Below are positions 819 through 32,873 of a stretch of DNA of 64,000 nt, piece by piece. Source of the DNA: an uncultured Bacilli bacterium (lineage in GTDB: Bacteria; Bacillota_I; Bacilli_A; RFN20; CAG-288); the NCBI GenBank assembly GCA_944371605.1, contig CALVXU010000019.1, positions 20,832 through 84,831 of the forward strand. Reading direction: 5' to 3'. Positions within the stretch are counted from its first letter, which is position 1, and every line of letters starts with the position of its first letter. The translations under genes were made by a program, and so were the position numbers. The notes under the pieces were generated by a model. It searched no databases, was not told the DNA's origin, and saw only the letters and a list, made by a program, of their open reading frames with translations.

Positions 819-3800
819 AATAAGCTTTTTTTAAAGACTCTGTTAAAAAAAGTAAATCATTTAGATAATCTTTGGTTTTCGTAAGGATAAATTGAAATTT
901 ATTATTGATTATTTTCACACGCAATTTTATAAGTAATGGTGCAAGTGTTTCTTCTAATTGTTTATACATTAATGGCTTTGAAGAAAATTCTTTTGATGTT
1001 GTTATATCATAAACACCTAGTGCTTCAACGAAATTATCATATAGTGAGGTGTTAAGATTGATTTCAATCTTTCTCTTGACCAAGAGATTAGCGACTTCTT
1101 CAGGATAAGGACCATAGACATCACGTATCTTTTTGGAAAAAGCATTTAAGTCTTCATCATTCAAACAATCCGATAGTTCTCGATACATATTGATTCGCTC
1201 AGCCTCAGAACCATAAGAAGAAGGAATGTGTGCGTCTAATGAAAATGAGAGTTCAAATCTATAGGCCGTCTCTCTATTTTGCAATGCTTCTTGAACAGTT
1301 TGTTTTTCTTTTACGACTTCTTGTAATAATTCCATATAAGCATCATAGCCAAGCGTATCAACAAATCCTGCTTGCTCAGAGCCTAAAATATCACCAGCTC
1401 CTCTGATGTTTAAATCTTGCATAGCAATTTTATATCCGCTTCCCAGTTCAGTAAAATCTTTTAAAGCTTTTAATCTTTTCCTAGCATCATCCGTCATCTT
1501 TCCTTCATTTTTAAAGAAAAAATAGGCATAGGCTAATCTATCGCTTCTACCAACTCTTCCTTTGATTTGATAGAGTTGAGCTAATCCGAAATGATCAGCA
1601 TCTTCAACGATGATTGTATTGACATTTGGAATATCTAATCCTGACTCGATGATAGAAGTACATACCAACACATCGATTCTATTCTCATAAAAATCAGCCA
1701 TCGTCATCTCTATCTCTTCTTCGCTCATCCTAGCGTGTACCCCTTTGATGACAGCATTAGGAAATTTCGCCGCTAGTTTAGAAACAACTGATGCGAGAGA
1801 ACTGATTTTATTATGCAAATAATAAACTTGTCCCTTTCTCAACAATTCTTTTTCGACGACTTCGTAGATCAATTCTTGATCCATCTTAGCCACATAGGTC
1901 TTGACAGGTAAACGATTGATCGGTGGCTCTTCTAAAAGCGAGAGTGAACGTATGTTCAATAACGACATCTGCATCGTGCGTGGGATAGGTGTTGCTGTGA
2001 GCGTTAAGCAGTCGATATTCTTACTTTTTTCTTTGATTTTCTCTTTATGAGTGACTCCAAATTTTTGCTCTTCATCAACGATTAAAAGCCCTAAATCTTT
2101 AAATTGAATTTCATCTGACAGCAATCGATGCGTTCCGATGACAAAATCTATTTTCCCTTCTTTTAACAGATGAATGTTTTGAATTTGTTCTTTTTTTGAA
2201 ACAAAACGAGAAAAGAAGGCTATCTTAATACCGAATGGCTCTAATCTTTGCTTTGCAACTTTATAATGCTGTTGACAAAGGATAGTAGTAGGGCATAACA
2301 AAGCCACTTGTTTATGTGCTAAAACAGCTTTAAATGTCGCAAAAAAGGCTATTTCAGTTTTACCGAAACCGACATCTCCAGCGATTAATCTATCCATCGG
2401 ATGTGAGGATTCCATATCTTTTTTTATAGCTTCAATCGCCTCGGATTGTGAACGCGTATATTGATAGGGGAAAGAATCCAAATATTCTTGTTCTAATTGT
2501 GGATAGGCTGGGAATGAAAAGCCCGGTTTCAAATTTCTTTCTGAATATAAAGCTAATAGTTGATCGGCTAAATATGAAATCCTAGAGCGGATGCGCGCTT
2601 TTTTTCTCGACCAAGTCGACCCTCCTATTTTGTCTAATACCGGTGTATATCCTTCTCTAGACGAATATTTCCTGATCAAACGATATTGCGAAAGCGGTAG
2701 ATAAAACACAGCATCATCAGCATATTTAATCTTTAAATATTCTAGCCCATCCATAATGGCGACACCTAGGTACTTACCGACACCATGAACTTCATGAACG
2801 ACATAATCACCTTCTTTTAAATCTTCATATTTGGAAATGATTTTTGCTTCTTTATATCTAGTTAAAAATCGAGATTTTGTCTCATTGACTCCATATATTT
2901 CTTTCGCTGACAAATAAACATGCTTATATTCCGGTAGTTCAAACCCTCTCGCTATCGTACCATTAAGCAACATCAATTGCGAATGCGTGGGATAAATCGA
3001 AAACGGCATGTCATTACTAGTCAAATAATTTTCGCAGTTAGATAAATTTGGTTCTGGCAAAACTATTCGTACTTTGTATCCTTCATTTAAATATTGTTCA
3101 AACAATTTGTTCGATTCAGCATAAGAGATTGATTTATACGAATTATTTCTGACTATAAACGAATCTCCTTCTAAATAGCAAGCTTTTATAAAGCCGGTAA
3201 AATCAGGCTGCTCACTAATATAGACTTTTTCTCCATCTATCGAGTTGTTTTCTTTTATCGAATGCTTAAAATAAGTTTTTTCTTTATTTTTTATATCTTT
3301 ATATATTTCATAAATTTGTGATGGTTCATAAATGTATTTTTCATAATCTTCCAAGTATGATAATAAAGATGATGTACTTTTAGAAAAGAATGGATAAAAA
3401 CGTTGATTAATATCTGTCAAGTTCAGATTTTTCGCTTCATCTAAAAGTGAATTGATTCTCTCTAATAAATCATCATAATTCCCTCTAGATATTAAACTGA
3501 CCTGTTCTAATCGCTTTAAAATCTCCTCTTTGCCAGCTTGATATTCTTTCTCTGTGAACAGATTCATTGAAAACGGATGGATAACGATTTCTTCAATATG
3601 TTTATAAGAAAGTTCATCTCTCGCTTTAAACAGTCTCAAATCATCAATCTCATCACCAAAAAATTCGATACGTATCGGATCAGGATAACATGAATCAAAG
3701 ACGTCAAGAATTCCACCACGTAAAGAAAACTGACCAGGTGAAGAAACACGATCAACCGCTTTATATCCAGCTCTAATCAATCTGTTTAAAAGATCATCAC

Positions 3801-5403: not shown

Positions 5404-5612
5404 ACTGCCTATCTTTCTTTCAGTCACTTAATTATAGTTAAAATCAGCTTGCTTTTTGTAGGCTTCGCAAAAAAATATCTTTAAATATTATTTTTTACAT
5501 ATATTTATTTTATTTTTTACGTCATATAATAAATATATAGTAAAAAAACGCAATGTTTTAAAGCAATTTTTGCAATAATAGCGTGAAAGCGCTTTGATAA
5601 AATAATATGAGC

Positions 5613-5630
5613 GCTAGGGCTTTCCCTAGC
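5613..5630 (+). promoter_or_regulatory. short perfect stem-loop (GCTAGGG-CTTT-CCCTAGC) in the 5' leader of the 5673 operon
   Basis: 7-bp inverted repeat with a 4-nt loop, 40 nt upstream of the start codon. Function unknown. Confidence 0.3.
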
Positions 5631-5672
5631 AGTTTGTGTATGGATTGATGCAATTTAAATAAGGAGGAGATT

Positions 5673-8600
5673 ATGAGGAAAAAAGTTTTGCTGTCGGTTT
5701 GTCCGCCTCTTCTTTTATCTCTCAGCATCCTTGGCACAGGTTTTGCCCTAGGAGCTAATGAGGATTCTTCAACATCAACAGGCGAAGAAGAAAATAAAGA
5801 ACCGATCAAAGCTACAATTGCAGATATTTATGAAAACACCCGTCCTGATTATGGCGAGATTTTCGATTACGATTCAGAATATGTCCCATCTGATCCACCG
5901 GATGTCAACAAAGATATCACCCTTACATTAGATTCTAGATCACCTGTCAAATTCAAAAACGGTTCTAATACTCTTGTTAAGAAGCCGACAGAATATTTGA
6001 CAGAAGATGATTTTGATTTAGATGGTATAACAGGTGGTAGAAAATTAGCTGGTATTGCTAATGTCACTGAAGAAGGTATCGGTTCTGGAGTTGCGTTAGA
6101 CTCTTATACAGTCCCATTTGAAAACGCGACTATTCTTCCATATTTCTCTGCTGCTGAAGGCTTCACTTCTATCGATATAGCTAGCGGATCATATAGTCAC
6201 AACATTAATACTGATGGACTCAGTTGGAGTGGTATCACCACAGAGAGAACCACAATCACTAGAAATGTTGTGGTGCCCGGAGGCAGTGATAATTATCCAG
6301 CTATTGGTGCGACTATCGATATCAGCGGAATAGTTGATGCTGGAGATGCGTTTAGAATCGATAATGATGCCGCTGATGTTAATGTCAATGATAAAGAGAA
6401 TGAAACTTTCGCTGTCTATGAATTCAATTATAATTTCTATAACTTTGGTGAAAGTGATCTACATTTAGAATACTATCAAATTTCCAATTCTTCTGAATAT
6501 AAAAATGGCAGCACTGATTATGAAAATCATTATCGTATTGACGTGATTTTAAAACCTGGTGAAGGTTTCTCAACAATGGGTCAATATAAGTTGAAAGACA
6601 ATAACAATTTCTTGACCTATGTCGTTGTTGACAGAACTGTAGAAGACTTTAATTTAGGGTTAGCTATCGAAGCTAAGAAGACTGATTTAGAAGAGCCATC
6701 TACTATCAGTCCTGAGAAACCTAAAGAATATGCTCCTATCAACCTCAATTTACCTGATGGCATCACTTTAAAAGACGATAGTTATGGACAAGGCGTTATC
6801 GGTGAGCCTATCATTCCTCCGACTGACGAACAATTGAACAATACCACAGGTAGAACCATCGAAGGTTGGTATATCGACGGTGATGAACATACCATCATTG
6901 ATGGCACTAGATTGCCAGAAGGTGGTGTCACTATCGCTCCTTACTTCGCTCCTCTTGAAGGACAGCAGCTAGTTCCTGGTGATTCAAAATCCTACCATGC
7001 TGATTATTATTACAATTTAGATGATGAAGCCGCTGCTGAAGAAGATGAAGATTATTATAAAGATGAAACGACCATCAAAACAAAACTCCATTTCATCAAT
7101 AATGAAAAGGGTGTTATCGTTTCTAAAACTGATGGTTTTATCAAGAATGATTTCTTTAGATTACTAACATATTGTGGAGAATCTAAAACTAATCAAGGCA
7201 TCATCGCTAACAATAAATATCGTTTCACTTACAATTTCACCAACCAAGGTAGCGAAACCATAAAATTCCACGTGATTCAAATTCAACAACAGACTGCGAT
7301 CACTGAAGAAGAGGGTGCTGTCATCAGCGAAACAATCACTTTAGAGCCACAACAAAGCAAACAAATTGTTCTAGAGATTGTTTTAACTAATGATAACAAA
7401 AATGCTATGACTGGCTTTGTCATGGAAGATGATGTTTCAGCTTTTGAAATGGCGATGACAATGAACAAGCAAAATCTTACTGCTCCGACGATGTCCAATG
7501 TCACTTTAGTCAATTCTCCAATAACTTTCGCTAACGGAACTAATACTATTTCTAAAGAATTAGGTAAGACTTTAACCTTAGCTGATTTTGATACATCTTC
7601 TATCGCTGATAGTCGCACATTGCTCGGTGTAGCCGAAGTCACAGCTGACGGATATGTCAATCAGACATCTTTAGAAAATGGTGGATCATATGCTTTATCC
7701 AGTAAAGAAGTATCAATAATGCCTTACTTTTCTGAAGCTTCCGGACTCACTAGAGTGGTTGCTGCTGGCGCTAATCATGGCTTTAATTTAGATGGTGTTC
7801 CTGGCACATTAAACGATGACTTATTTGCCACTAATGATGAAGCTTATGCTGATATCTCTTTCTCTTCCAACAAAGTGATTTCTGCTGGCGAAGATAGCTA
7901 TGCACAATTAGGTTTCATAGGCGGAATCAATAAGAAGATAACCACCGGTGACGGAATGAGATGGGATTTTAAAGCCAATGGTGTTAACTCCAGCTCTTCT
8001 GCTGAAGCCGTTTATGAATTCCACTATATCTTTGAAAATATGGGAGATGAAGATTTGCATTTAGATTTCTATCAAATCTCTGCTTCTTCCGAATATAAAG
8101 AGAATAATAAAGCCTATGAAAGCCGCTATCGCATCGATATCGATTTAGCACCTGGTGAAAGCATGACTGCTTTAGGCCAATATAAATTAGGTAGTAATAA
8201 TAACTTCCTATCTTTCGCCATCGCTGATCAAGATATGAACAGCATGTCATTAGGTATTTCTATCACAGCTAAAAAGACTGATTTAAGTGAACCGACCACT
8301 GTTTCTGAACCTGAAGATGAAGAACCAGTCGATCCAGAACCCATTGAAGAACTTGTAAAATTTAATTTGCCTTCTGGTATCACAATCAAAGATACTTATA
8401 CAGCTGGAAATGCTGGAGATAAGTTAATAGTTCCTACAGCTGATCAAATCGAAAACACCACTGGTAGAACTATCGAAGGCTGGTTTATCGATGATGCTGA
8501 CGCTGATATAGTGACTGATTCAACCACTATTCCTGAAGCCGGTGTCACCATCGCACCTTATTTCGCACCTATCAATGATTACAATAAGCTTTGGCTTTGT

Positions 8601-9104
8601 TCTGGAAGTTGGAATGGCAAACCGAATGATTCTAATTATACAGGTATCGATATCGATAGTTTTACACAAAATCCTCATACTGAGGAGGGGGTGACTAATA
8701 CAGACAGACAAAAAATAGTCAGAGGTAAAAATGGTTTTGCTGAATTAGGCGTAGATCTCGAATATACTGGCGGAACTATTAATGCTGGAAACTACTTTAG
8801 ATGCGACAGCAAATACTTACCATCTAACATGACTGCTGGCACTCATAAATTTTCTCTTAATTTTGAAAATAAAGGTACTGCTGAAATCGACTTTACACTC
8901 TATTTGATCAACAGCGGACACGATAAAAATAGTGCAAGTAACAATAGCTTTGTTCTCAAATTAGCTCCAGGAGAATCAACCACCATCTCTATTTCACCGA
9001 CATATGCTGGTAATAATGGAAATTGCTTGCTCTTATTTGAAGCTAATTCCGCATGCTCTGACTTTAATTTAGGCGTCGCTATGTCCGTAAAATATGGTGC
9101 CTAA
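5673..9104 (+). CDS. large secreted repeat protein (1143 aa) with tandem ~390-aa modules, each ending in a Listeria-Bacteroides (Flg_new)-like repeat
   Basis: AAGGAGG ribosome-binding site at 5660-5666 and N-terminal signal peptide (MRKKVLLSVCPPLLLSLSILGTGFALGANE). Two near-collinear repeats (YEFNYNFYNFGESDLHLEYYQIS...TGRTIEGWYIDGD...GVTIAPYFAP and YEFHYIFENMGDEDLHLDFYQIS...TGRTIEGWFIDDADAD...GVTIAPYFAP) plus a truncated third copy at the C-terminus. No C-terminal anchor. Confidence 0.8.
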   Translation: MRKKVLLSVCPPLLLSLSILGTGFALGANEDSSTSTGEEENKEPIKATIADIYENTRPDYGEIFDYDSEYVPSDPPDVNKDITLTLDSRSPVKFKNGSNTLVKKPTEYLTEDDFDLDGITGGRKLAGIANVTEEGIGSGVALDSYTVPFENATILPYFSAAEGFTSIDIASGSYSHNINTDGLSWSGITTERTTITRNVVVPGGSDNYPAIGATIDISGIVDAGDAFRIDNDAADVNVNDKENETFAVYEFNYNFYNFGESDLHLEYYQISNSSEYKNGSTDYENHYRIDVILKPGEGFSTMGQYKLKDNNNFLTYVVVDRTVEDFNLGLAIEAKKTDLEEPSTISPEKPKEYAPINLNLPDGITLKDDSYGQGVIGEPIIPPTDEQLNNTTGRTIEGWYIDGDEHTIIDGTRLPEGGVTIAPYFAPLEGQQLVPGDSKSYHADYYYNLDDEAAAEEDEDYYKDETTIKTKLHFINNEKGVIVSKTDGFIKNDFFRLLTYCGESKTNQGIIANNKYRFTYNFTNQGSETIKFHVIQIQQQTAITEEEGAVISETITLEPQQSKQIVLEIVLTNDNKNAMTGFVMEDDVSAFEMAMTMNKQNLTAPTMSNVTLVNSPITFANGTNTISKELGKTLTLADFDTSSIADSRTLLGVAEVTADGYVNQTSLENGGSYALSSKEVSIMPYFSEASGLTRVVAAGANHGFNLDGVPGTLNDDLFATNDEAYADISFSSNKVISAGEDSYAQLGFIGGINKKITTGDGMRWDFKANGVNSSSSAEAVYEFHYIFENMGDEDLHLDFYQISASSEYKENNKAYESRYRIDIDLAPGESMTALGQYKLGSNNNFLSFAIADQDMNSMSLGISITAKKTDLSEPTTVSEPEDEEPVDPEPIEELVKFNLPSGITIKDTYTAGNAGDKLIVPTADQIENTTGRTIEGWFIDDADADIVTDSTTIPEAGVTIAPYFAPINDYNKLWLCSGSWNGKPNDSNYTGIDIDSFTQNPHTEEGVTNTDRQKIVRGKNGFAELGVDLEYTGGTINAGNYFRCDSKYLPSNMTAGTHKFSLNFENKGTAEIDFTLYLINSGHDKNSASNNSFVLKLAPGESTTISISPTYAGNNGNCLLLFEANSACSDFNLGVAMSVKYGA

Positions 9105-9115
9105 CAGGAGGAAAT

Positions 9116-9655
9116 ATGAGTAATACATTTAGAAATAAAAAAGTAGGGTCTTATTTCGGTGCTTTCTTCGCACTATTAGTCATCGCCTTAGCCATCTATT
9201 ATTTCATCGCAATCGTTCCATTAGCTACAGTTGAAGGAGCTGCTCTTTATAATATTTTGGCTCCTTGGCAGCTCTATACCATCTTCGCCTTATTATTAGC
9301 TGGTGGTGTCCTTTATCTGGTCTCTTTCTTCTTTAATTTAGACAAATTAGGTGCTGGCGTCATGGGTACTTTATGCTTTGTTTCCTTCATTCTTTATATA
9401 ATACCTGTCTTAGCTTATCCGATAAGTCAAATGATGGTCTATCCTATCGACCAATTGTTCCAAATCCCTCATTTAATAACCGTTTTAATAATCCCTATCG
9501 GCGCATTACTTCTAGCTATCATTTGCAACGTCTTAGCTTATTGTCCATTAGTTAAAAGAAATGATACTATCACTTCTGACTATCTCTATAAAATTTTAAC
9601 TGAAGGTTTTGATTTCATCACTCTTAACAAGGAGGCCACACATGAAGAAAAATAA
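9116..9655 (+). CDS. polytopic membrane protein (179 aa, 4-5 TM helices), hypothetical
   Basis: Strong ribosome-binding site (CAGGAGG) 7 nt upstream. Hydrophobic segments run throughout. It lies between the repeat-protein gene and the GH3 gene and overlaps the next gene start. Confidence 0.65.
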   Translation: MSNTFRNKKVGSYFGAFFALLVIALAIYYFIAIVPLATVEGAALYNILAPWQLYTIFALLLAGGVLYLVSFFFNLDKLGAGVMGTLCFVSFILYIIPVLAYPISQMMVYPIDQLFQIPHLITVLIIPIGALLLAIICNVLAYCPLVKRNDTITSDYLYKILTEGFDFITLNKEATHEEK

Positions 9656-12600
9656 TAGAAAACTTTGGAGAGCTTCGACCATCACTTTCAACGTCTGCTT
9701 AGCCGTCGGTGGTTTGGCTTATCTTTTTTCCGCTTTGACAAAACAATATCCTGATATCGCCGGATACGTTTCTAGTTTCTTAAAAGATTCAGGATATACT
9801 GAAACAATCACCACTGGTAAAGAACCGGTCAGATTTAAAACGTGGTATTCTTCTATCGAAGATGTTTTAAACGGTAATGACGATGTCGGCAAAGCCGCTG
9901 AATCCGAAGGTGCTGTTCTTCTAAAGAATGATAATAGTGCTCTGCCTTTAAGCACTTCTGATGATAAGGTTTCTTTGTTTGGAGTCACTGCTTATCAACC
10001 TATTTATTCATTGGATGGCGCTGGTGAAGTTCAAATCAACGCTGATAGACAACAATATTTCTATGATGAGATGGAAGCTGCTGGTCTAACAATGAACAAA
10101 GAATTAGCAGATTGGTATAACAGTGATGATGGCCGAGCATATTGGCATGCTATTCCAAAATATTCTGGTGGTGGAAACAGCCAAAATATGACTTTAAATG
10201 GTGCTAGTTGGGATACTTTACCATCATCTAAAACCGCTAGCGGATATAACACTGCTGTATTTGTTGTCGGTCGTATCACTAATGAAGGTATCGATGTCAT
10301 GCCTTCTAATAATGTCGGTGGTGCACGAGATAGAGATTTCTTAAAATTCACCAATAATGAATTATCAGTTTTACAAGGTTTAAAAGAAGCTAAAGATGCT
10401 GGAACCTTTGATAAGATCGTTGTCTTGATCAATTCTGCCACTGGAATTATGGAAGATTTGCCGACTCTCTTTGATAACTATGGCGTTGATGCTGCTATGT
10501 GGGTGGGTTTGCCAGGCACCTCTGGCATCGAAGCTGTAGCTGATTTATTAGTTGGAAAATCATCTCCTTCTGGTGGTCTATCAGATGCTTGGTACACTTC
10601 CAGAGATGCTCATCCGACCACTCCTTACTATGGAAATGGATCAAACTTATTGATTCAAGAAGATATCTATTATGGTTATAGATATGCTGAGACTAGATAT
10701 GAAGATAGAGTCTTAGGAACAGGCAGCACCGATTCCTATATTTATGACGATAATATCTCTTATCCTTTTGGATATGGTCTATCTTACAGTGAATTCTCAT
10801 ACACTTTCGATAGTCTCGAAATCGATAATGATCCTTTGAAAAACTATTATGATAACACCTATAACGAAGTTGGTGTTGAAGATGAAGAGAAAGCTGGAAA
10901 ACGTCATGAAATCATGATGATTGATGATCCTAACAGACGTAAAGAAGGAGATGATTACATCGCTAATGTCACTGTCACTAACACTGGTGATATGGCTGCT
11001 AAGCAAACAGTTGAAATTTACCTTTCTAAACCATATACAGAGACTGATAAACAACATGGCGTCGAAGATGCCTCTGTCGAATTAGTCGGCTATGGTAAAA
11101 CAGATAAACTTGAACCGGGAACTTCACAAACTTTACAGATCAGAATAGATGCCAACAAATACTTCGCTTCCTACGATGATTCTGTTAAAAATTACACTGT
11201 TGAACCCGGAACATATTATTTGGTCGCTGCCACAAACTCGCATGAAGCTGTTAACAGCCTTTTAAAAGCTAAGGCTGAAGATGGTGTTCAAGTAGATCAA
11301 GGCAAAATGGATGATGAATATGGTGCTGGTGATGCTGATAATGTTCAATCCGTCAATGTCACTAACGAATATTCTGAAAACTATAAATATTGGACTAAAG
11401 GTGGCAATGAAGTGACTAATCTCTTCGACTTTGCTGATCCTAATAAAGTCGGTGATGAGAGTTCACACGTCACTTATATGTCTCGTTCAAATTGGACACA
11501 AACCGCTGATCAAGCTAAAAATCAATCTGTCACTGTCAGCGGCGATATGGGATTCTTAGGTCAGACTAATGGCGGAAGTAATTTCAGTGTTGAAAACGCT
11601 CAAAAATACTATCCAGAAGCAGTCGCTTCCTTCGAAGATAAATATCCGACCTTCAGAGATGAAGATGCTCAAGCTACTATGACACTAGCCGAAATGATCG
11701 GTGTTGAATATGATACTAAACGCGGCGCAACCGAAGAAGATGTTCAAAAATGGGAAGACTTCTTAAATCAGCTCTCTTGGAGTGAATTAGCTACTCTCAC
11801 TGGAACTGGTAGAAGAATGACCGCCGCTATTGAGAGCATCGGTAAACCACAGACAAATGATGTCAACGCTTCTAACGCTATCTCTTGGCATTTCAACATG
11901 GGCGTCGATAGTAATGAGGCCAATGATACCGTAGGTTTTGGCGTCCGTTTCGATCCTGATAATGCTAGAAAATATTATCCTACCGGTTATCCATGCGAAG
12001 GCATCATCGCTTCAACTTTCAATAATGAACTCGCATATGCTATCGGTCAAGCTATCGGCGAAGATGGTTTATGGTCTGGTGCTGCTGGCTTATATGGTTT
12101 CGGTTTAGGCTTACATAGAAATCCATACCATGGTAGAACTGGTGAATACTACTCGGAAGATCCTTTCTTAACCGGTATGATCGGTGGATATTCATCATTA
12201 GGTGCTCAGTCTAAAGGCTTATATGTCTACAATAAACACTTTGTCTTGAATGACCAAGAACAGAATAGAATTAGTTATAATACTTGGTTAAATGAACAAT
12301 CTTTCCGTGAGATTTATTTGAGACCATTCGAAATCGCTATCGAAATCGGTGACGCTATGAATGTTATGAATTCCTTCAATCATATCGGCACTGCTTGGTC
12401 TGGAAACTGCTATAACTTAATGACCGCTTGGTTAAGAGGCGAAGCTGGTATGGCCGGATTTGCTGTCACCGACTGGTATAAATCTGGTGGTATGAATATG
12501 ACTTATGGTATCTTAGCTGGAACTGATTTGCCTGATGGTACTGACGACACTACTATTGAAAATAATGGACCTGCCAAAGGCAATACTGGATTCTATGCTC

Positions 12601-12830
12601 AAGCTGTAAGACAATCAGCTAAGAGAATCCTCTACGTTGTCGCTAATTCCAACGCCATGAACTTCATCGGTGATGACACTAGAATCGTCATTCATGAGCC
12701 TAATTGGTATGCTTGGAGGGATAACATCCAATATGTTGGCTTTGGCTTAATCGGTGCTAGCGCCTTATTCATGATTGCTGCTGGCCTCTACACTTTCGTC
12801 TTCAAAAGAGATGAGACTGTCAATAACTAA
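9642..12830 (+). CDS. glycoside hydrolase family 3 (beta-glucosidase-like) with reversed domain order, N-terminal signal-anchor and C-terminal TM helix
   Basis: Start taken at the ATG 9642, preceded by AAGGAGG at 9629-9635 (ORF track starts at 9609). The first half carries GH3 domain-2 and FN3 motifs (AVLLKNDNSALPL, VGLPGTSG..AVADLLVGKSSPSGGLSDAW, YPFGYGLSYSEF, VTVTNTGDMAAKQTVEIYLSKP). The second half carries domain-1 motifs (GRTGEYYSEDPFL, KHFVLND, REIYLRPFEIAI, GFAVTDW nucleophile region). It ends with a hydrophobic helix then KRDETVNN. Confidence 0.85.
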   Translation: MKKNNRKLWRASTITFNVCLAVGGLAYLFSALTKQYPDIAGYVSSFLKDSGYTETITTGKEPVRFKTWYSSIEDVLNGNDDVGKAAESEGAVLLKNDNSALPLSTSDDKVSLFGVTAYQPIYSLDGAGEVQINADRQQYFYDEMEAAGLTMNKELADWYNSDDGRAYWHAIPKYSGGGNSQNMTLNGASWDTLPSSKTASGYNTAVFVVGRITNEGIDVMPSNNVGGARDRDFLKFTNNELSVLQGLKEAKDAGTFDKIVVLINSATGIMEDLPTLFDNYGVDAAMWVGLPGTSGIEAVADLLVGKSSPSGGLSDAWYTSRDAHPTTPYYGNGSNLLIQEDIYYGYRYAETRYEDRVLGTGSTDSYIYDDNISYPFGYGLSYSEFSYTFDSLEIDNDPLKNYYDNTYNEVGVEDEEKAGKRHEIMMIDDPNRRKEGDDYIANVTVTNTGDMAAKQTVEIYLSKPYTETDKQHGVEDASVELVGYGKTDKLEPGTSQTLQIRIDANKYFASYDDSVKNYTVEPGTYYLVAATNSHEAVNSLLKAKAEDGVQVDQGKMDDEYGAGDADNVQSVNVTNEYSENYKYWTKGGNEVTNLFDFADPNKVGDESSHVTYMSRSNWTQTADQAKNQSVTVSGDMGFLGQTNGGSNFSVENAQKYYPEAVASFEDKYPTFRDEDAQATMTLAEMIGVEYDTKRGATEEDVQKWEDFLNQLSWSELATLTGTGRRMTAAIESIGKPQTNDVNASNAISWHFNMGVDSNEANDTVGFGVRFDPDNARKYYPTGYPCEGIIASTFNNELAYAIGQAIGEDGLWSGAAGLYGFGLGLHRNPYHGRTGEYYSEDPFLTGMIGGYSSLGAQSKGLYVYNKHFVLNDQEQNRISYNTWLNEQSFREIYLRPFEIAIEIGDAMNVMNSFNHIGTAWSGNCYNLMTAWLRGEAGMAGFAVTDWYKSGGMNMTYGILAGTDLPDGTDDTTIENNGPAKGNTGFYAQAVRQSAKRILYVVANSNAMNFIGDDTRIVIHEPNWYAWRDNIQYVGFGLIGASALFMIAAGLYTFVFKRDETVNN

Positions 12831-12973: not shown

Positions 12974-13417
12974 TTATTTTTTATGGGCTTTTTTCAATAA
13001 AGATTTGATTTTTTTAGGTGTGAGCTTTTCTTTTTTAGCTTCTAAAGCCTTCACACTCCCAAGCTTTTGAGCTGTTTCATAATACCAGCATTTATATTCG
13101 ACCATACATAAAGCTTTCTTCATCGCTGCTATCTTAGCTTTAGTCTTCTCCCTCTGCATCAAAAAGAAATTCAATCTCTTTTCTATTGAACTATCTCCTT
13201 CTTTAGTCCATTCGATAAACTGCTTGATATCTTTCAATTGTAAATCAGCTTTCTTCAAACATTCGATCAGAAAAATAGTTTCGATGTCAGAGTCAGTGAA
13301 TTTTCTGATGCCATTCACTCTTTTGATTTCAGGTAGTAGTCCCTCTTTATCATAAAATCGGATCTGTGAAATCGTGAGATTGAACTTTTTAGCGATTTCT
13401 CCTATCGTATATTCCAT
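12974..13417 (-). CDS. MerR-family transcriptional regulator
   Basis: N-terminal MEYTIGEIAKKFNLTISQIRFYDKEGLL is a classic MerR HTH. It is divergent from the 13528 gene. Confidence 0.85.
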   Translation of the reverse strand: MEYTIGEIAKKFNLTISQIRFYDKEGLLPEIKRVNGIRKFTDSDIETIFLIECLKKADLQLKDIKQFIEWTKEGDSSIEKRLNFFLMQREKTKAKIAAMKKALCMVEYKCWYYETAQKLGSVKALEAKKEKLTPKKIKSLLKKAHKK

Positions 13418-20048: not shown

Positions 20049-22400
20049 ATGACAACAGAGCAACAGATTAAAAAGTTAAGTATTGAAGAAAAATCCGCTC
20101 TTATGAGAGGTATCGGAAATTGGAAAAGCAAAAATAATAAAACAATTGACCTGTGCTCTTTAACTTTTTCTGATGGCCCTATCGGCATCAGAAAAGAATT
20201 AGAAAACTCTAATTATCTACAACAATCTATAATAGCCGTTTGTTTTCCATCAGGCGCTCTCTTAGGTCAAACATTTAATCCGAATATCGTTAATTTGGTT
20301 GCTGCTGAGATTGGCAAAGAGGCCAGATATTACGATATCGATATTCTTCTAGGTCCAGCGATGAATATAAAGCGAAACCCTTTAGGCGGAAGAAATTTCG
20401 AATATTATAGTGAAGATCCTTATCTCACTGCCGAATTAGCTAAAGCTTATGTCATCGGTTTAGAAGGCCAAGGAGTAGGCGCTTGTTTAAAACATTTTTG
20501 TGCTTATTCGCAAGAAACAAATAGAATGACAATAAACGCTGTCATAGATGATAGAACTCTACACGAAATATACTTATCAGCATTTGAAGACGTCATTTTA
20601 GCGACAAATCCGGCATCGATTATGACCAGTTACAACATGGTGAACGGCGTGCATATGTCTGAAAATAAAGCTTTGTTATCTGATTATCTAAGAAAAAAGC
20701 TGAACTATAACGGTTTGATCATCTCTGATTGGTATGCAGTTTCAAATCCTGTCAATTCTCTATTGAATGGTCTTGATTTAGAAATGCCGCAATCAAATGA
20801 AATCAATTATGAAAAAGTATATGAAGCAATAACTAAAGATAAAAGTGTTGAAATATCGTGTGACCAAGCCATTTTATATTTAAAACAAACAAGTGACAAG
20901 TTCCATAAAGAGCATAAACATGTTGATTTAAATTTTGAAGATGGGCACGAAATAGCTAAGCAAGCAGCGTTAGAAGGAATAGTACTTTTAAAAAATGATA
21001 ATCACATCTTACCGATTCATGATTTAAAAGATGTTCTGCTCATCGGTGAATTAGCTACAACTCCACATATCCAGGGAGGAGGAAGTTCGCACATCAACAC
21101 TTATAAATCTACTTCTTTCTTAGAAATGACTAGTGATTTAGATTACATAAGAGGATATAACTTACAAAACGAAAACGATAACACTCATTTACAACAAGCA
21201 ATCGATAAAGCAAAGCACTATAAATCCGTAATTGTTTTTCTTGGATATAATGATTTAGAAGAATGTGAAAGCATTGATAAAACCGATATTTCACTGCCTA
21301 AAAATCAATTAAAACTGATTGAAGAACTGACAAAACTAGACATAAAAATCATTGTCATAATAGAAACAGGTTCTGTATGTGAGATTCCTTTTATCAATGA
21401 GGTAGATGCTGTTTTTTACACTTCTTTAGGAGGTGAAGCTGTCAATGATGCTTTATATGATCTAATCTTAGGAAATAAAAATCCGTGTGGACATCTCGCT
21501 GAAACATTTCCTCTAAAGCTCAAAGATAATCCCTCTTATGAATATTTTCCTGGAGATGGCAACAACGTTCTTTATAAAGAAGCTTTATATGTTGGTTATC
21601 GTTATTATCAAACCTTTGATGTTCCCGTATTATTTCCGTTCGGCTATGGTTTGTCTTATTCAAATTTCCAACTTAAAGCTTGCTCTTTACTTGAAGATGA
21701 AGATATCACAGTCAAAGTGATAATAAAAAACACCAGTTCTATTCCAGGAAAAGCCTGCGTGCAAATTTATATGAGCAAACCAAATGATCATATTTATAAT
21801 CCAAAAAAAGAACTGATAGCTTTTTCTAAACCTTTTTTACAAGCATATGAAGAAAAAGAGATTATCTTGCCGATAGACAAAAGAAAACTATCTTATTTTG
21901 ATATCGAATCAAACAGATATCTACCACTATATGGAGAATACACATTTACAATAGGATTTGATTCTTTGGATGATAGTTTTAAATTAAAATATTCATTCAA
22001 TAATTCACATATTACTACAAAAACATCTTTATATAATATAAATAATATACATAAAATCAATGACGAGCTATTTCAAACTTTATTCAATAAAGAAATGCCT
22101 ATAGTTAAAAAAGCTAAACCTTTCGACATAGAAACGACTTTAACAGAAGCCAAGAGCAAAGGCTCCAAGGGTGCTAGACTATTTATTGCTATAATCAGTA
22201 AAATCAAATCAATCAAAGAAAACAAAATCTATTATAATACCATCCTTAATTCACCTATCAGAGTTCTTATTTATAACATGCCTGTATTAGCTAAAAATAA
22301 TTCAAAAGTCTTCTTGAACGTTTTAAATGATCATCACTATATTTGGAATTTGCTCAAGCTTCTTTTATCAATGGCTAAATATGCTTCAAAATCATTATAA
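20049..22400 (+). CDS. cytoplasmic glycoside hydrolase family 3 beta-glucosidase, canonical domain order, with ~130-aa C-terminal tail
   Basis: GGRNFEYYSEDPYL, KHFCAYSQE, SDW (LIISDWYAV), IVLLKNDNHILPI, FPFGYGLSYSNF and KACVQIYMSKP are all present. There is no signal peptide. Confidence 0.9.
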   Translation: MTTEQQIKKLSIEEKSALMRGIGNWKSKNNKTIDLCSLTFSDGPIGIRKELENSNYLQQSIIAVCFPSGALLGQTFNPNIVNLVAAEIGKEARYYDIDILLGPAMNIKRNPLGGRNFEYYSEDPYLTAELAKAYVIGLEGQGVGACLKHFCAYSQETNRMTINAVIDDRTLHEIYLSAFEDVILATNPASIMTSYNMVNGVHMSENKALLSDYLRKKLNYNGLIISDWYAVSNPVNSLLNGLDLEMPQSNEINYEKVYEAITKDKSVEISCDQAILYLKQTSDKFHKEHKHVDLNFEDGHEIAKQAALEGIVLLKNDNHILPIHDLKDVLLIGELATTPHIQGGGSSHINTYKSTSFLEMTSDLDYIRGYNLQNENDNTHLQQAIDKAKHYKSVIVFLGYNDLEECESIDKTDISLPKNQLKLIEELTKLDIKIIVIIETGSVCEIPFINEVDAVFYTSLGGEAVNDALYDLILGNKNPCGHLAETFPLKLKDNPSYEYFPGDGNNVLYKEALYVGYRYYQTFDVPVLFPFGYGLSYSNFQLKACSLLEDEDITVKVIIKNTSSIPGKACVQIYMSKPNDHIYNPKKELIAFSKPFLQAYEEKEIILPIDKRKLSYFDIESNRYLPLYGEYTFTIGFDSLDDSFKLKYSFNNSHITTKTSLYNINNIHKINDELFQTLFNKEMPIVKKAKPFDIETTLTEAKSKGSKGARLFIAIISKIKSIKENKIYYNTILNSPIRVLIYNMPVLAKNNSKVFLNVLNDHHYIWNLLKLLLSMAKYASKSL

Positions 22401-22453: not shown

Positions 22454-24145
22454 TTACTTCTTAGTGATTTGAATCATCACACCAGCGCTAAATTCTGTAC
22501 CCGTCTGCGAAAGGGAAGCATAAATGAATTCCAAATTGATATCGTATGTATTTTCACCAACTGTCACTTCTTTAGCAGCGATAAGATTTTCGGAGTCGAT
22601 TTCATATCCACAGTCCATAAACATACTGAAATCGAGATTCAAAATCAAATTGAGATACGTATTGATTTGATCTTGGCTAGTGACTGTAAAATTCGTTCCT
22701 AACATCATGCTACCATCTGTCAATTGTAAAAGACTAGCATTTCCATAATAACAGGGGATAGGGATTTCATGAACGATTTGATCAGCTTCATCATCTGTGC
22801 AATCAGCAAGTCCTAAACCCTCTTTGATTGAATAATAATTGAAGTATTCATCAAATCTGATATAGTCGATCTCTTCAGGTACTTCTACTCCTGAATCTTC
22901 GATTTCCCCAATAGAAGTATAAGAAACAACATACTGGCTAGGAAATTCATATCCGCTATAAGAATAAACAGATTCGGCTGTGAAAGTGATCTCTGTGCTA
23001 GTGATACTCACAGTTAAAGAAGCGATACTATCAGCAGCAAAAGGATCAAACTCAGCTGTAGAAACAGTTAAACTTGAATAAGTCTCTAAATCTAATTCGT
23101 ATTCACCACTATCATTCTTCTTGAAAAAGATAGAAGAGATATCAAAGTCTGGCAGCCCACATCCTGGTAAATAATAGCCGGATTTATAATATGTGCCATT
23201 AGACATTTGAATAACACTATGTAATGAACCATCTCTATCGACCATGATAGTATCATCTAGATCGACTAATACACCGCCAGAAACAGTGCCGCTCAAACTT
23301 GATAAAGGCTGTAACACTCCTGTGTCAGCAACAACTGAGAAAGTTTCTGCCACTTGATAATTACCAGCCTGCAAAGTTTTCATCGCGGTATCAAAATCAT
23401 CGTCTGCCTCACCAGTATATCCTTCTAATGGAGTGATGACATCTTCGCTCAATTCATCAATAGTCGCCATGACAGTGACAGTCATACTGCCTAGTCCTTC
23501 ATAAACATATTCTTCACTAACAAAAGTATAGCCAGTGATTTTAAACCCATCGGTGATGACTTCTAATGATTCCAAAGTGAATCCATAGCCACCGATAGCT
23601 TGAGTTGCGATAGCACTCTTTAAATCGTCAGATAATCCTTCTAAATCCAATGTAAAATGATATTGCGTAGCAGCATTAACAAAATTTTCACTCTTCAACG
23701 AACCAAAGAAATTGCTGAAACTCTCTTGCCAAGTCATATCTGTTAAAGTTTCAGTTTCAACAGTGTTGCTCAACCCGATATAATTATGACCTGCTAAAAC
23801 CAAATCTCCATCTGTCACCGCTTGATAATATTCATCATAATCAATCTCTTCCTTTTGAGGAGTGCCGTCTTGAGAACCCACATAAGCAGTCACATGATAT
23901 GTATCAGCATCAGATTCAACGTCCGCATAAGATTGGAGGCTCGTCGCCTCTTGTCCTGCGATATTGTAGTCAACCTTAACAAGATTTTCAGATGAATAAC
24001 CTTTACCAGCTTGACTCAACATTTCATCAGTCAAAGCATTGACCGCTGTCGGTGTCGAACTAGAATCAGACTCTGTACAAGCTGTCAACCCAGTGCCGAT
24101 CAATAGTGCCGATGACACTAAAATTAAAAACGCTTTTCTCTTCAT
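22454..24145 (-). CDS. hypothetical surface lipoprotein (563 aa)
   Basis: MKRKAFLILVSSALLIGTGLTAC lipobox. Acidic, Thr/Ser-rich extracellular protein. No catalytic motifs recognised. Confidence 0.7.
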   Translation of the reverse strand: MKRKAFLILVSSALLIGTGLTACTESDSSSTPTAVNALTDEMLSQAGKGYSSENLVKVDYNIAGQEATSLQSYADVESDADTYHVTAYVGSQDGTPQKEEIDYDEYYQAVTDGDLVLAGHNYIGLSNTVETETLTDMTWQESFSNFFGSLKSENFVNAATQYHFTLDLEGLSDDLKSAIATQAIGGYGFTLESLEVITDGFKITGYTFVSEEYVYEGLGSMTVTVMATIDELSEDVITPLEGYTGEADDDFDTAMKTLQAGNYQVAETFSVVADTGVLQPLSSLSGTVSGGVLVDLDDTIMVDRDGSLHSVIQMSNGTYYKSGYYLPGCGLPDFDISSIFFKKNDSGEYELDLETYSSLTVSTAEFDPFAADSIASLTVSITSTEITFTAESVYSYSGYEFPSQYVVSYTSIGEIEDSGVEVPEEIDYIRFDEYFNYYSIKEGLGLADCTDDEADQIVHEIPIPCYYGNASLLQLTDGSMMLGTNFTVTSQDQINTYLNLILNLDFSMFMDCGYEIDSENLIAAKEVTVGENTYDINLEFIYASLSQTGTEFSAGVMIQITKK

Positions 24146-24440
24146 ATATATATATTCCTCCTTCTGAAATTAAAATTAATTATAAAAAAGCTCATTAAAT
24201 TAAGATTTAAAAATTCAGAAATTAATATTCTATAATTCGATATAAAAAACATAAAAATGACGCTATTTTGATCAATTTTTTATTAAAAAGATTATTTTCT
24301 ATAGATTTTTGTATTTTTTGAAATGACTAAAGAAACCCCTTACATCGCGCTTGCTTTTCACTGATGCGTAAGGCGATGTTTTTTTAAAATAAGTACAGTT
24401 ATAAAACATCCAACAATCTCCTTCTCAATTGAAGATTTGT

Positions 24441-24488
24441 ATTCAATAAAAAAGAGTTACACAATCTGATCGACTATGTAACTCTTTT
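24441..24488 (-). terminator. rho-independent terminator for the 24505..26397 gene
   Basis: Perfect 12-bp inverted repeat AAAAGAGTTACA / TGTAACTCTTTT, followed on the minus strand by a T-run. Confidence 0.7.
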
Positions 24489-24504
24489 AAGTGCAAATTA
24501 ATTA

Positions 24505-26397
24505 TTATTCTTTAGGCTGTTCAGAAGGATTGTAGGTTGAGAAGAAAGTTTCAATCGCATCATTAAGCGGGTTAGCTGCCTCAGCTTTACCAAAATTAGT
24601 GAATGTAGCTTTTGAAGTTTGATAATATCCATTACCAGACGGCCAACCGAATGAGAAATTAATTTCAGAAAGTGAACCAGCAGATAATACTACATTCATA
24701 CCGAGCAAAGATTCTCCTGTCGGGAACTCAGTATTGATCGGCGCTCCCCAAACTAATTGTTGAGCGATTAAATTTGTCTTATCAGCTTGAGCGATGTGAT
24801 ACTCAGTATCATCTCCTTTCCACAAACCAGAAGCTTCAGGAGTGAATTGGTAGAAGAATGATCTATCTTCAGAATATGCAGCAGTTGCTGTGAAATAATT
24901 TCTGAACATTCCATCAGTTGAAGTGTATAGATCGTAATCACTGAGTTTAGTTCCCTTACCAGTTCCAGCATCCATAGCATTTGTCACTGAAGAACCATCA
25001 GTTTCAAATAAGATGATAGTATTATCTTTATAATATAATCCGGTTCCACCGACAGTGAGTTCTTCCTCAGTGGGACCTTTATATTTATTGTAGTCATTGA
25101 CAAATGTTTCATCATAATATAAGAAAACATAATTGTCAGCAAAATAACAATTATATGATGATTCAGCATACTCGCCTTCAGAGATTTTGAAGAAGCTATA
25201 GATCTTTTGGACATAATTATTGCCTTCAAATCCTTCAGCAGCAGCTTCTAATTCAGAATTGAGTTTAGGAACTACCGTAGTAAATGTTGATAAATCAGTT
25301 TCCAAAGTCGGAAGCATAGTAGAGATATCACTTAAAGCAGTTGTTCCTAACTTATCAATAGTACCGACGACGGTTGCATCTCCGATTGTGAAGGTGACTT
25401 TGAAATTGGTTGTGCCTAACACTTCAATAGATGTGTCATATAATCCGACGACATCTAATAAAGAATACATACCATCACTACCAACCACCTGTTGAACTAA
25501 TGATTGATAAACATCAGGAGCGAAAGCATTTAATAAACCGACTTCAACATACACTGAATTAAACTCTGAGTCAGCATTACTACCAACAATCTCATAAATA
25601 TTATTATTAGATTTTTCACTTGGATAATAGCTCGGATTAATCGCTGATAAAGAGATGAATAAATCACCAGATGTTGGTGAAGATAAACCAGCGCCATCAA
25701 AATTTTCTGAAGTTAAAAATCCGCCTTCACTAGAGATGATTCTTTCAGGAGAATTGACGAAGCCAGAATCAGAATATTGGATGTAACCAGCATAACCATC
25801 AGTATCAACACCGATACCATATAAAGAATTGCCATCCTTTGATTTCCAAATAGCTGCATCTTCGCCACCGATATCTGTATATTGGATGATAGCCTCATCA
25901 GTTAAGACCGTATAATCGTGAGCAACAACGGGATCACCAGCCTCACTAACATATAATCCATCGATTGTAGCTGTCAAAGTGTAGTTATGAGTCTTATTGA
26001 TAGCAGAGAAGACTTCCGGTAAAGTTGGTAAAGCTTCGCCAACAGTTACTGTGCAAGAAGCAGAGATATCTGGATTGACAACAGAAGTAGCAGTGATGGT
26101 GGCTGTTCCCATAGCTTTAGCAGTGAAAGAGACATTAGTTGCCCCACTAGTAGTAGTGGTGAATTCAATGACTTCTGGATTGTCGGTAGTGAAATTGGAC
26201 ATGAAATTATTGATGGATTCAGAAGAGTTAACAGTAGCTCTTAAAGTGTATGATCCGCCAACTTCTGCTTGAATTGTATTACGGTTCAATTCGATAGTGA
26301 CAGCAGGATAATCGGGTTGGCAGGAAACTAATGTGGTAGCACCAGCGCCTGCTAATAAAGCTAGAGCGGTTATACCTAAAATAAATTGTTTTTTCAT
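24505..26397 (-). CDS. surface lipoprotein with N-terminal Ig-like (Big_2-type) domain (630 aa)
   Basis: MKKQFILGITALALLAGAGATTLVSC lipobox. TIQAEVGGSYTLRATV...ATITATSVVNPDISASCTVTV resembles a Big_2 domain. Confidence 0.7.
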   Translation of the reverse strand: MKKQFILGITALALLAGAGATTLVSCQPDYPAVTIELNRNTIQAEVGGSYTLRATVNSSESINNFMSNFTTDNPEVIEFTTTTSGATNVSFTAKAMGTATITATSVVNPDISASCTVTVGEALPTLPEVFSAINKTHNYTLTATIDGLYVSEAGDPVVAHDYTVLTDEAIIQYTDIGGEDAAIWKSKDGNSLYGIGVDTDGYAGYIQYSDSGFVNSPERIISSEGGFLTSENFDGAGLSSPTSGDLFISLSAINPSYYPSEKSNNNIYEIVGSNADSEFNSVYVEVGLLNAFAPDVYQSLVQQVVGSDGMYSLLDVVGLYDTSIEVLGTTNFKVTFTIGDATVVGTIDKLGTTALSDISTMLPTLETDLSTFTTVVPKLNSELEAAAEGFEGNNYVQKIYSFFKISEGEYAESSYNCYFADNYVFLYYDETFVNDYNKYKGPTEEELTVGGTGLYYKDNTIILFETDGSSVTNAMDAGTGKGTKLSDYDLYTSTDGMFRNYFTATAAYSEDRSFFYQFTPEASGLWKGDDTEYHIAQADKTNLIAQQLVWGAPINTEFPTGESLLGMNVVLSAGSLSEINFSFGWPSGNGYYQTSKATFTNFGKAEAANPLNDAIETFFSTYNPSEQPKE

Positions 26398-26622
26398 ATG
26401 ACAAAAAGCCTCCTAAAAAATAGACATTGAAAATCATATCAAAAAAGTGATTGATAAAAAGTGGTTTTAAATTTAACTCTATTTAAAAGTTTACGTTGAT
26501 TTTTTTAAAAAGCGCCGATTTTATCGATATTTTTAGATATTTTTTGCTGATTTGTTTTGTAAATCATTTTTATTATTTTAATGTGAAAGCGCTTTACTTT
26601 TTTCTTTGCGATTATCAACTAA

Positions 26623-29742: not shown

Positions 29743-29743
29743 A

Positions 29744-31810: not shown

Positions 31811-32859
31811 GAGGCTTTAGCTCCCATTCTAATACGAGGATCAACAATACCATAGCTCAAATCAACAAGGAGAGAAGCAGCTAAGCTGATCATAGTGAAG
31901 ACCGCCATATCGACTAACAAAACATTATAATCACGGGCGTTGATAGCTTCGACAAATAATCTACCAATACCTTGAATACCATATAATTGTTCCAAAACGA
32001 CCGAGCCTCCTAAGATACCGATGAATTGACCGATGATCATCGGAACTAACGGGACAAGTGAATTTCTCAAAGCGTGTCTAACAACACATTGGCTCTTAGT
32101 CAATCCTTTAGTTCTAGCTAATAATAAGAACTCACTAGACATAACTTCACAGAGTTCAGCTCTTGTATATCTAGTGAAAGCCGCGATTGTACCAAAACAT
32201 AGCGCTAGAACAGGGATCACCATCGCTCTTGCATAAGCAGATATAGGTGAACCATTTATCGGCCAAGAAGAGGGTAACCAGCCGGTATCATAAGATAACC
32301 ACAACATCAATAAAGAGATGATGACAAACGAAGGGACAGATATAAAAATCATGACAACTGTAGAAATGACATGATCTGTCGGTTTATTTTTCTTTAAAGC
32401 AGCGATGATACCAAAGATAAAACCTAAAGGAAGCGAAATGATCAACGCAAAGATATTGATAGTGATAGTGGGGACTAATCTTTGACCGATGATGTATATC
32501 GCATCAGCTTGACGTTGGATAACAGAAGAAGTTCCCCATTCCCAACGAGTAAAAATACCGGTTAGCCATGAGAAATATTGGTCGATGAGAGGACGACGAT
32601 AATAGAAGAAAGTCGCTCCAGTCGGATCAGTATACGGAGGGATAATCGTGCTCCCTAATCCCGTCTGCTCAGTGTGAAAGACCAAGTAATAGCCTTGGCT
32701 GACTTGGTCTTGACAATATGCATTTTGAGCAACATTGTTTCCACTGATAGGCGGGTCAGGAAGCATTTTCATCAAGAAGAAAGTGATCGTCAATATCACA
32801 AAAGTTGTGAATATTAATAAGACGATACGCTTAAGAGAATACTTTAATAAGTAAGGCAT
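31807..32859 (-). CDS. oppB: oligopeptide ABC permease OppB
   Basis: Six-TM BPD permease with the C-terminal DPRIRM motif typical of OppB/DppB. Confidence 0.88.
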   Translation of the reverse strand: MPYLLKYSLKRIVLLIFTTFVILTITFFLMKMLPDPPISGNNVAQNAYCQDQVSQGYYLVFHTEQTGLGSTIIPPYTDPTGATFFYYRRPLIDQYFSWLTGIFTRWEWGTSSVIQRQADAIYIIGQRLVPTITINIFALIISLPLGFIFGIIAALKKNKPTDHVISTVVMIFISVPSFVIISLLMLWLSYDTGWLPSSWPINGSPISAYARAMVIPVLALCFGTIAAFTRYTRAELCEVMSSEFLLLARTKGLTKSQCVVRHALRNSLVPLVPMIIGQFIGILGGSVVLEQLYGIQGIGRLFVEAINARDYNVLLVDMAVFTMISLAASLLVDLSYGIVDPRIRMGAKAS

Positions 32860-32873
32860 GTGATCACCTTGGA

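Follow-up and report, generated by a model that had tools for sequence, protein, structure and literature searches.

The palindrome AAGCGCTT, which recurs in the 64-kb window (the whole stretch of DNA that was analyzed, with about 35% GC), is a real, conserved and non-random element, and the sites built around it are probably cre boxes, i.e. 14-bp pseudo-palindromic operators of the LacI/GalR-family regulator CcpA. As judged from the sequence, we assign this reading a probability of roughly 0.75. The sites precede genes for secreted and lipid-anchored proteins, among them two permuted GH3 glycosidases, a GH5 enzyme, an S8 protease and several lipoproteins, which would place these genes under a common carbon catabolite control.

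Occurrence and Enrichment of the Palindrome

Exactly four copies of AAGCGCTT are present in the window when coding DNA is included, and the preliminary description was thus correct in reporting no other site of this type. Three of the palindromes lie where that description had placed them, i.e. GTGAAAGCGCTTTG at 5583-5596, GTGAAAGCGCTTTAC at 26583-26597 and TGTAAGCGCTTAT at 53862-53874; the fourth one, AAAAGCGCTTAT, is also present but at 53920-53931 rather than at 53914-53925, a slip of 6 nt. The reported gene distances hold as well, with 77 nt between the end of the first site and the ATG at 5673. The second site is 187 nt from the lipoprotein ATG at 26397 (minus strand), and the third and fourth sites fall within the 166 nt that separate the divergent genes of LytTR and the second permuted GH3.

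When the whole window was shuffled preserving dinucleotides, 1.04 copies of AAGCGCTT were expected versus the 4 seen, and 2 of 100 shuffles reached 4. All four copies are located in the non-coding part, i.e. the 4,654 nt (7.3% of the window) not covered by open reading frames. In this intergenic DNA 0.022 copies are expected from its base composition (Poisson P = 1e-8, or 2.6e-6 once corrected for all 256 8-mer palindromes), and AAGCGCTT shows the top enrichment among the 256 possible 8-mer palindromes.

Similarity of the Sites to cre Boxes

The 14-mers around the core read TGAAAGCGCTTTGA (S1), TGAAAGCGCTTTAC (S2), TGTAAGCGCTTATA (S3) and TAAAAGCGCTTATA (S4), and they show 1, 2, 1 and 2 mismatches, respectively, to the Firmicute cre consensus TGWAANCGNTNWCA. 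They display the features by which a cre box is recognized, that is, a pseudo-palindrome of 14-16 bp resembling TGWAANCGNTNWCA or WTGNNARCGNWWWCAW, a G at position 2 and a central CpG. The central CG is found in all four sites and the G in S1-S3, with an A at position 2 of S4. The sites and their scores with the matrix described below are as follows.

5584-5597, plus strand: probable cre site S1, TGAAAGCGCTTTGA; 15.33 bits, rank 4; one mismatch to TGWAANCGNTNWCA
26584-26597, minus strand: probable cre site S2, GTAAAGCGCTTTCA in gene orientation; 15.99 bits, rank 1 in the window
53862-53875, plus strand: probable cre site S3, TGTAAGCGCTTATA; 15.23 bits, rank 5; in the divergent spacer between the LytTR gene and GH3-2
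53919-53932, plus strand: cre-like site S4, TAAAAGCGCTTATA; 11.14 bits, rank 16; within the predicted GH3-2 promoter spacer

The weight matrix, for which 69 B. subtilis cre boxes served as the sole input (Marciniak et al. 2012, PMC3463425), is independent of the window. When both strands of the whole window were ranked with it, S2 was the best match, S1 the fourth and S3 the fifth, and six of the seven best matches were intergenic. The scores of S1, S2 and S3 correspond to the 32nd-48th percentile of genuine B. subtilis boxes, and that of S4 to the 1st percentile. Nine intergenic matches reached at least 10 bits, compared with 0.62 in dinucleotide shuffles (none of 300 shuffles reached nine), and matches were ten times denser in intergenic DNA (2.15 per kb) than in coding DNA (0.22 per kb). 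Likewise, the window holds 17 matches to TGWAANCGNTNWCA with at most one mismatch versus 5.8 expected. Three of the sites differ by a single base from a B. subtilis cre box, namely S1 from that of xynP (TGAAAGCGCTTTTA), S2 from that of acoR (TGAAAGCGCTTTAT) and S4 from that of xsa (TAAAAGCGCTTACA) (PMC3463425), and S3 differs by two bases from its closest counterpart. The GCGC core has been associated with high-affinity cre boxes (Marciniak et al. 2012, PMC3463425).

The agreement is looser in the right half-site, which is degenerate in every site and mostly lacks the expected CA at positions 13-14. Moreover, several conserved sites have a centre other than CG, i.e. TG at the protease gene and GG at the gene of a 563-aa lipoprotein; such centres are rare among B. 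subtilis boxes, where the central CG is nearly invariant, and they could mean that a second, related regulator is at work. A Rex box (TTGTGAA-N4-6-TTCACAA) was discarded, as S3 and the protease-gene sites read TGTAAG with another spacing and only the left halves of S1 and S2 resemble GTGAA. The preliminary description had proposed operator-type sites for a dimeric helix-turn-helix regulator that define a regulon; the sites are indeed promoter-proximal, enriched and conserved, and what had been missed is that they look like the classical cre box.

Conservation of the Sites in Related Loci

The related loci were drawn from uncultured genomes. In the pooled alignments 67 of 71 site columns were identical, compared with 701 of 1,164 columns elsewhere in the aligned spacers (Fisher P = 1.3e-10), and the best matrix match within a coding region (at 39803, with a similar score) was not conserved. 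Footprinting in relatives, which had been put forward as a check, thus favored three of the four palindromes, since S1, S2 and S3 are conserved but S4 is not conserved in the sister species. Selection acting on orthologous sites was apparent for S1, S2, S3 and both sites at the protease gene, and not for S4.

These results bear on whether the palindromes have any regulatory function. They might have arisen by chance or represent restriction or methylation targets (AGCGCT or RGCGCY) tolerated only outside genes, and the recognition sequences of AfeI/Eco47III and HaeII are indeed contained in the sites; furthermore, the shuffle test of the whole window, taken by itself, is only marginal. Nevertheless, genes do not avoid AGCGCT, holding 10 of its 15 copies in the window, and therefore restriction-site avoidance does not account for the pattern. 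The intergenic enrichment (P = 1e-8), the conservation of the full 14-mer with its TGWAAG arms instead of the 6-mer alone, and a conservation of site columns far above that of the flanks all speak for function, and a non-functional origin is effectively refuted. A shared mobile element or repeat was also rejected because the flanks of the sites are unrelated.

Site S1 Lies in the Putative Core Promoter of the First GH3 Operon

The elements around S1, all of them on the plus strand, are the following.

5571-5579, plus strand: extended -10-like element TGCAATAAT, conserved, flanking S1
5595-5603, plus strand: extended -10-like element TGATAAAAT, conserved, overlapping S1
5613-5630, plus strand: leader stem-loop GCTAGGGCTTTCCCTAGC, from the terminator scan
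5673-12830, plus strand: operon 1, encoding a 1143-aa secreted repeat protein, a 179-aa membrane protein and the permuted GH3-1 (Pfam, signal peptide)

The gene order of operon 1 is the same in two related loci (L011 and L012). At the orthologous locus L012, whose protein is 70% identical, S1 is kept as TGAAAGCGCTTTTT while the rest of the spacer is about 54% identical. TTTTTGCAAT and TAAAAT are conserved there beside S1, and a T-tract plus TGCAAT is retained together with the site. A simple sigma-70 scan found no canonical -35/-10 pair around S1, and such promoter and terminator scans of three regions gave no usable promoter for S1 or S2 and a weak one near S4. From the two conserved extended -10-like elements we infer a core promoter region at 5571-5603. 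S1 sits between them and overlaps them, so that it covers either positions -27 to -14 or the transcription start.

The leader stem-loop is also kept in L012, the locus of the sister species B, where GGG:CCC is changed to AAA:TTT in a compensatory manner. Within window 5613-5656 it is followed by an invariant GTATGGATTGATGCAATT that is able to form a second small hairpin. An Rfam scan of the whole window gave no match, the leaders thus not being known RNA elements, and the leader of the S1 operon could be a 5' mRNA stabilizer or a regulatory leader. Judging from a conserved ribosome-binding site and ATG, GH3-1 probably starts at 9642 rather than at the TTG at 9609 of the mechanically called reading frame, and the 179-aa protein (9116-9655) is a weak match to the Mycoplasma MAG0110 membrane-protein family.

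Site S2 and the Distance from Box to Lipoprotein Start

S2 is located just past the oppF terminator and 187 nt upstream of the gene of the 630-aa lipoprotein, in a region that includes the following features.

22454-26397, minus strand: genes of the 630-aa and 563-aa lipoproteins (lipoboxes LVSC and LTAC), each with its own upstream cre-like site
24331-24344, minus strand: cre-like site with a GG centre, TGTAAGGGGTTTCT; 14.05 bits, rank 6; 186 nt upstream of the 563-aa lipoprotein gene

The two lipoprotein genes are separated by a terminator. At S2 the block T-W-AAGCGCTTTCA is invariant in four other lineages (L007, L008, L009 and L021), whose downstream lipoproteins are 96%, 49%, 46% and 38% identical, respectively. 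The more distant locus L020 (lipoprotein 32% identical) carries three tandem paralogues after oppF, each of them preceded by a consensus cre 190-213 nt upstream (regions 3235-3498, 5404-5681 and 7542-7790). In agreement with this arrangement, the orthologue of the 563-aa lipoprotein in L009 (41% identical) has TGAAAGGGCTTTTA 171 nt upstream of its gene. The distance from box to start codon is therefore nearly constant, about 170-213 nt, for this family of 560-670-aa lipoproteins in five lineages, which suggests that these genes have either a long conserved leader or a control region farther upstream.

Of the -10-like hexamers, TATGAT is the best conserved and is found near the lipoprotein gene; S2 lies about 160 nt upstream of this hexamer, a distance that is unusual for direct action of CcpA. 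The position of TATGAT implies that boxes of the S2 type either accompany an unrecognized promoter of a long leader or would act from upstream. Several conserved AT-rich blocks are present between the box and the gene (window 26398-26583 and its equivalents in L008, L009 and L021), and a small hairpin plus a T-run is found at 26507-26529 and also in L021.

Pfam and NCBIfam returned nothing useful for the 1143-, 630-, 563- and 712-aa proteins. For the 630-aa lipoprotein, AlphaFold2 yielded a poor model (pLDDT 66, pTM 0.41), of which only the N-terminal Ig-like domain had a PDB match. The neighboring Opp-type ABC transporter (26670-35816) is unusual in the large size of its components (980 aa for the binding lipoprotein, 688 aa for OppC and 578 aa for OppD), which, together with the MAG0110 match, hints at a relationship with Mollicutes-like Bacilli. 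Farther along, DnaA boxes (TTATCCACA), both exact and near-exact, crowd on either side of dnaA (47720-49087, minus strand), at 47464-47636 and 49167-49454; dnaN is downstream and the GC skew reaches its minimum nearby, so that the window includes the origin of chromosome replication.

Sites S3 and S4 in the Region of the Second GH3

The second GH3 gene belongs to the following region, in which an additional weak site was detected.

50885-57024: operon of a GH5 lipoprotein and a TetR regulator (minus strand), LytTR gene (minus strand) and permuted GH3-2 (plus strand) (Pfam, NCBIfam, lipobox)
53168-53181, minus strand: weak cre-like site AGTAAGCGTTAACT; 12.1 bits, rank 13; about 110 nt upstream of the GH5-TetR operon

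S3 is conserved at all 14 positions in the sister species B (L002 and L016), despite differing flanks and a degraded LytTR gene in that species. It lies about 85 nt upstream of the predicted start of the GH3-2 promoter and 43 nt upstream of the LytTR start codon. S4 overlaps a predicted promoter, TTTAAA-18-TAAAAT, which is a weak call, and in species B it is replaced by TAAAACCATTATTA, with six substitutions in 10 nt of an otherwise identical block. Between S3 and S4 there is a perfect AT-rich inverted repeat, CCACTTTTTTAAAAAAGTG (53895-53913), with one change in species B; this repeat could serve as a further operator or form a hairpin in the leader. The part of the spacer proximal to the GH5 gene, including the box at 53168, is missing in species B, and the LytTR-domain gene beside GH3-2 (window 53229-53819 versus L002 9524-10000) is degraded or absent there.

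The two circularly permuted GH3 proteins (9642-12830 and 53986-57024) carry the C-terminal domain ahead of the N-terminal catalytic domain and share only 29% identity. At E <= 1e-100 over 7,000 homologues of the GH3-2 type were counted, mostly from Clostridia. For this lineage the protein collection contained no GH3-2 orthologue of intermediate distance, the identity jumping from at least 90% to about 52%, a gap that suggests lateral acquisition. Because such intermediates are missing, S3 could be compared with a single sister species. No cre was found upstream of the GH3 genes of an Erysipelotrichales metagenome-assembled genome (L015) with a GH3 homologue of about 48% identity, and the link between this enzyme family and cre is thus not general.

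Further cre-like Sites at a Protease Gene and a Third Lipoprotein Gene

The matrix also identified sites outside the four palindromes.

36312-40475, minus strand: S8 subtilase with a PA domain (Pfam), N-terminal sequence MKKLFSLVSLLTC
40658-40671, minus strand: cre-like site with a TG/CA centre, TGTAAGCACTTACA in gene orientation; 13.77 bits, rank 7
40768-40781, minus strand: second cre-like site of the S8 protease gene, TG centre, AGAAAGCACTTTCA in gene orientation; 15.82 bits, rank 2
57101-57114, plus strand: weak cre-like site TGTTAGCGGTTTAA; 10.96 bits; upstream of the 712-aa lipoprotein gene
57301-59439, plus strand: 712-aa lipoprotein gene (lipobox LSSC) with upstream cre-like sites

The site at 40658 is about 40 nt upstream of the TTGACA -35 hexamer of the S8 protease gene, and that at 40768 directly follows the stop codon of an M20 peptidase gene. 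Both are conserved at 14 of 14 positions in species B (L018), where they form islands in diverged sequence. The same alignment shows a conserved ribosome-binding site and ATG, which place the start of the protease at 40475 instead of the TTG at 40529.

Upstream of the 712-aa lipoprotein gene there is, in addition to the weak site, a TGAAAGCG half-site at 57234-57241. The corresponding spacer of species B has a strong TGAAAGCGTTTAAA (16.75 bits) at another place, a difference suggestive of site turnover. Directly before the ribosome-binding site of this gene, AGAAAGGGGTTTCATAAAAACCC (57262-57285) is nearly identical in species B; it scores 12.3 bits with the cre matrix and can form a GGGTTT/AAACCC hairpin, and it more probably represents an RNA structure than a cre.

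The Proposed Regulon

The preliminary description had spoken of a surface-protein/GH3 regulon. Surface proteins and GH3 enzymes are indeed among the targets, but this view is too narrow, since the S8 protease gene and another lipoprotein gene have conserved cre-like sites upstream too. Weak candidate sites precede the GH5-TetR operon and a third lipoprotein gene as well. Within the window the regulon would comprise the two permuted GH3s, the GH5, the S8 protease and three or four lipoproteins of unknown function. With the exception of TetR and LytTR, the products of all genes adjoining a site have a signal peptide, a lipobox or an N-terminal membrane anchor. None of these is present in the cytoplasmic GH3 (20049-22400), the gene of which has no site upstream.

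The sites are accordingly located where cre boxes are expected, i.e. in promoters, leaders or 5' regions of genes for catabolism or for extracellular enzymes. Such degradative enzymes, like the lipoproteins, belong to a class that CcpA typically controls. The regulon therefore looks like global catabolite control of extracellular nutrient-harvesting genes rather than a surface-protein-specific one. The B. subtilis cre list includes xynP, abnA, amyE, bglP and wprA (PMC3463425). For an uncultured Firmicute of the gut or the environment, this provides a regulatory annotation in which the secreted GH3s, the GH5, the S8 protease and the lipoproteins are probably co-regulated by carbon catabolite control, and such co-regulation points to a nutrient-harvesting role for the uncharacterized lipoproteins.

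Candidate Binding Proteins

The window encodes three regulators, MerR (12974-13417), TetR (50885-51388) and LytTR (53229-53819), each of them adjoining an operon that bears a site, and any of these could in principle bind the palindrome. Moreover, S1 lies between a -35-like TTGCAA and a -10-like TAAAAT, superficially as in MerR promoters. However, the spacer between these hexamers is 22 nt long (23 nt in L012) versus the 19-20 nt of MerR promoters, the dyad of S1 is displaced from the centre by 4 nt, and no such hexamer pair is found at S2 or S3; a MerR-type promoter operator was rejected on these grounds. LytTR domains recognize direct repeats, whereas the sites are inverted repeats, and S3 is perfectly kept in species B, where the LytTR gene is degraded to the point of lacking an open reading frame; a LytTR response-regulator site was discarded as well. 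In addition, the S2 loci of other lineages keep the site with no MerR or LytTR gene nearby, and the sequence bears the specific signature of a cre box. The statement of the preliminary description that none of the three regulators is clearly linked to the palindrome is borne out: the geometry expected of MerR and LytTR is absent, nothing supports TetR, and all three are very unlikely binders.

The binding protein that we infer is a CcpA orthologue acting with HPr-Ser-P. Neither ccpA nor ptsH or hprK was found in the window or the related loci, and a tblastn search with an approximate B. subtilis CcpA sequence as query detected no LacI-family gene in the window or in 14 related loci. Nearly all Firmicutes possess CcpA, and a homologue that controls a carbohydrate regulon is present even in the genome-reduced Acholeplasmatales (PMC5138195).

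The same boxes might instead be read by a dedicated regulator encoded elsewhere, either a LacI/GalR-family paralogue of CcpA or an unrelated dimeric helix-turn-helix protein, which would control a specialized surface nutrient-acquisition regulon and not global catabolite repression. A central CG and TG...CA arms are common to LacI-family operators in general, and therefore the motif alone cannot tell CcpA from a paralogue. Furthermore, every target is secreted or lipid-anchored, the TG and GG centres, being conserved, may reflect a second specificity, and the window and related loci contain no CcpA gene. Against this, the arms and core are within one base of CcpA boxes, the unrelated substrates (those of beta-glycosidases, GH5, protease and lipoproteins) suit a global regulator better, and no gene for a dedicated regulator stands beside the operons in five lineages. 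Taken together, we consider such a regulator unlikely. A particular form of this idea, which we regard as quite improbable, is that the lineage lacks a canonical CcpA or possesses a second cre-reading paralogue, the boxes constituting a dedicated lipoprotein/glycosidase/protease switch. It would account for the TG/GG centres and for the 170-210-nt spacing at the lipoprotein genes, and the spacing would then point to a long conserved leader or to regulation from afar, neither of which, to our knowledge, has been described for CcpA.

Proposed Mechanism

If the boxes are cre sites of CcpA, the established Firmicute model would apply, according to which HPr kinase would phosphorylate HPr on Ser46 when a preferred sugar is abundant, HPr-Ser-P would join the CcpA dimer, and the complex would then bind cre. 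At S1, which appears to be inside the core promoter, binding should block RNA polymerase, and the secreted-protein/GH3-1 operon would be repressed. In B. subtilis, boxes with this geometry repress bglP, acuA and amyE by excluding the polymerase (PMC3463425). S3, together with the species-specific S4, would repress GH3-2 and probably also the divergent LytTR gene. S2 and the protease sites are upstream of the likely promoters, and they might mediate distant repression, interference with an activator, or activation.

Comparison with Known Systems

The sites resemble the operators of LacI/GalR regulators (GalR, PurR, RbsR, MalR) in being even-length palindromes with a central CG step, which in those operators is contacted by the hinge helices of the dimer. 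Sugar-specific members of the family are usually encoded beside the one or two operons under their control; here, in contrast, at least seven dispersed transcription units carry sites, with no adjacent LacI-type gene.

The CcpA regulon of Acholeplasma laidlawii and other Acholeplasmatales (Fisunov et al. 2016, PMC5138195) is a parallel in being small and made up of carbohydrate-related operons, although the targets described here also include a protease and lipoproteins of unknown function. Acholeplasmatales are genome-reduced, lipoprotein-rich, low-GC bacteria with a standard genetic code (PMC5138195). The MAG0110 match, the enlarged Opp proteins and the many lipoproteins of the window are only suggestive of a taxonomic link to this group.

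With the cre boxes that CcpA/HPr-Ser46-P recognizes in B. subtilis the sites share the 14-bp pseudo-palindrome with a TGWAAG arm and a GCGC core, their location in promoters or leaders of genes for extracellular enzymes degrading polysaccharides or proteins, and their mixed positions, either overlapping the promoter or upstream of it. They differ from them by a more degenerate right arm, by some conserved TG/GG centres, and by the location of several boxes about 170-210 nt before lipoprotein starts, at a nearly constant distance; moreover, the host is here an uncultured low-GC Firmicute with a putative CcpA. The cre box is a well-known element by which low-GC Gram-positive bacteria shut off genes for secreted sugar- and protein-degrading enzymes while a preferred sugar is at hand, so that the novelty of the finding is low and it adds no new regulatory principle. 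Only the fixed long distance from box to lipoprotein start and the conserved boxes lacking a CG centre are mildly unusual when compared with the classical system.
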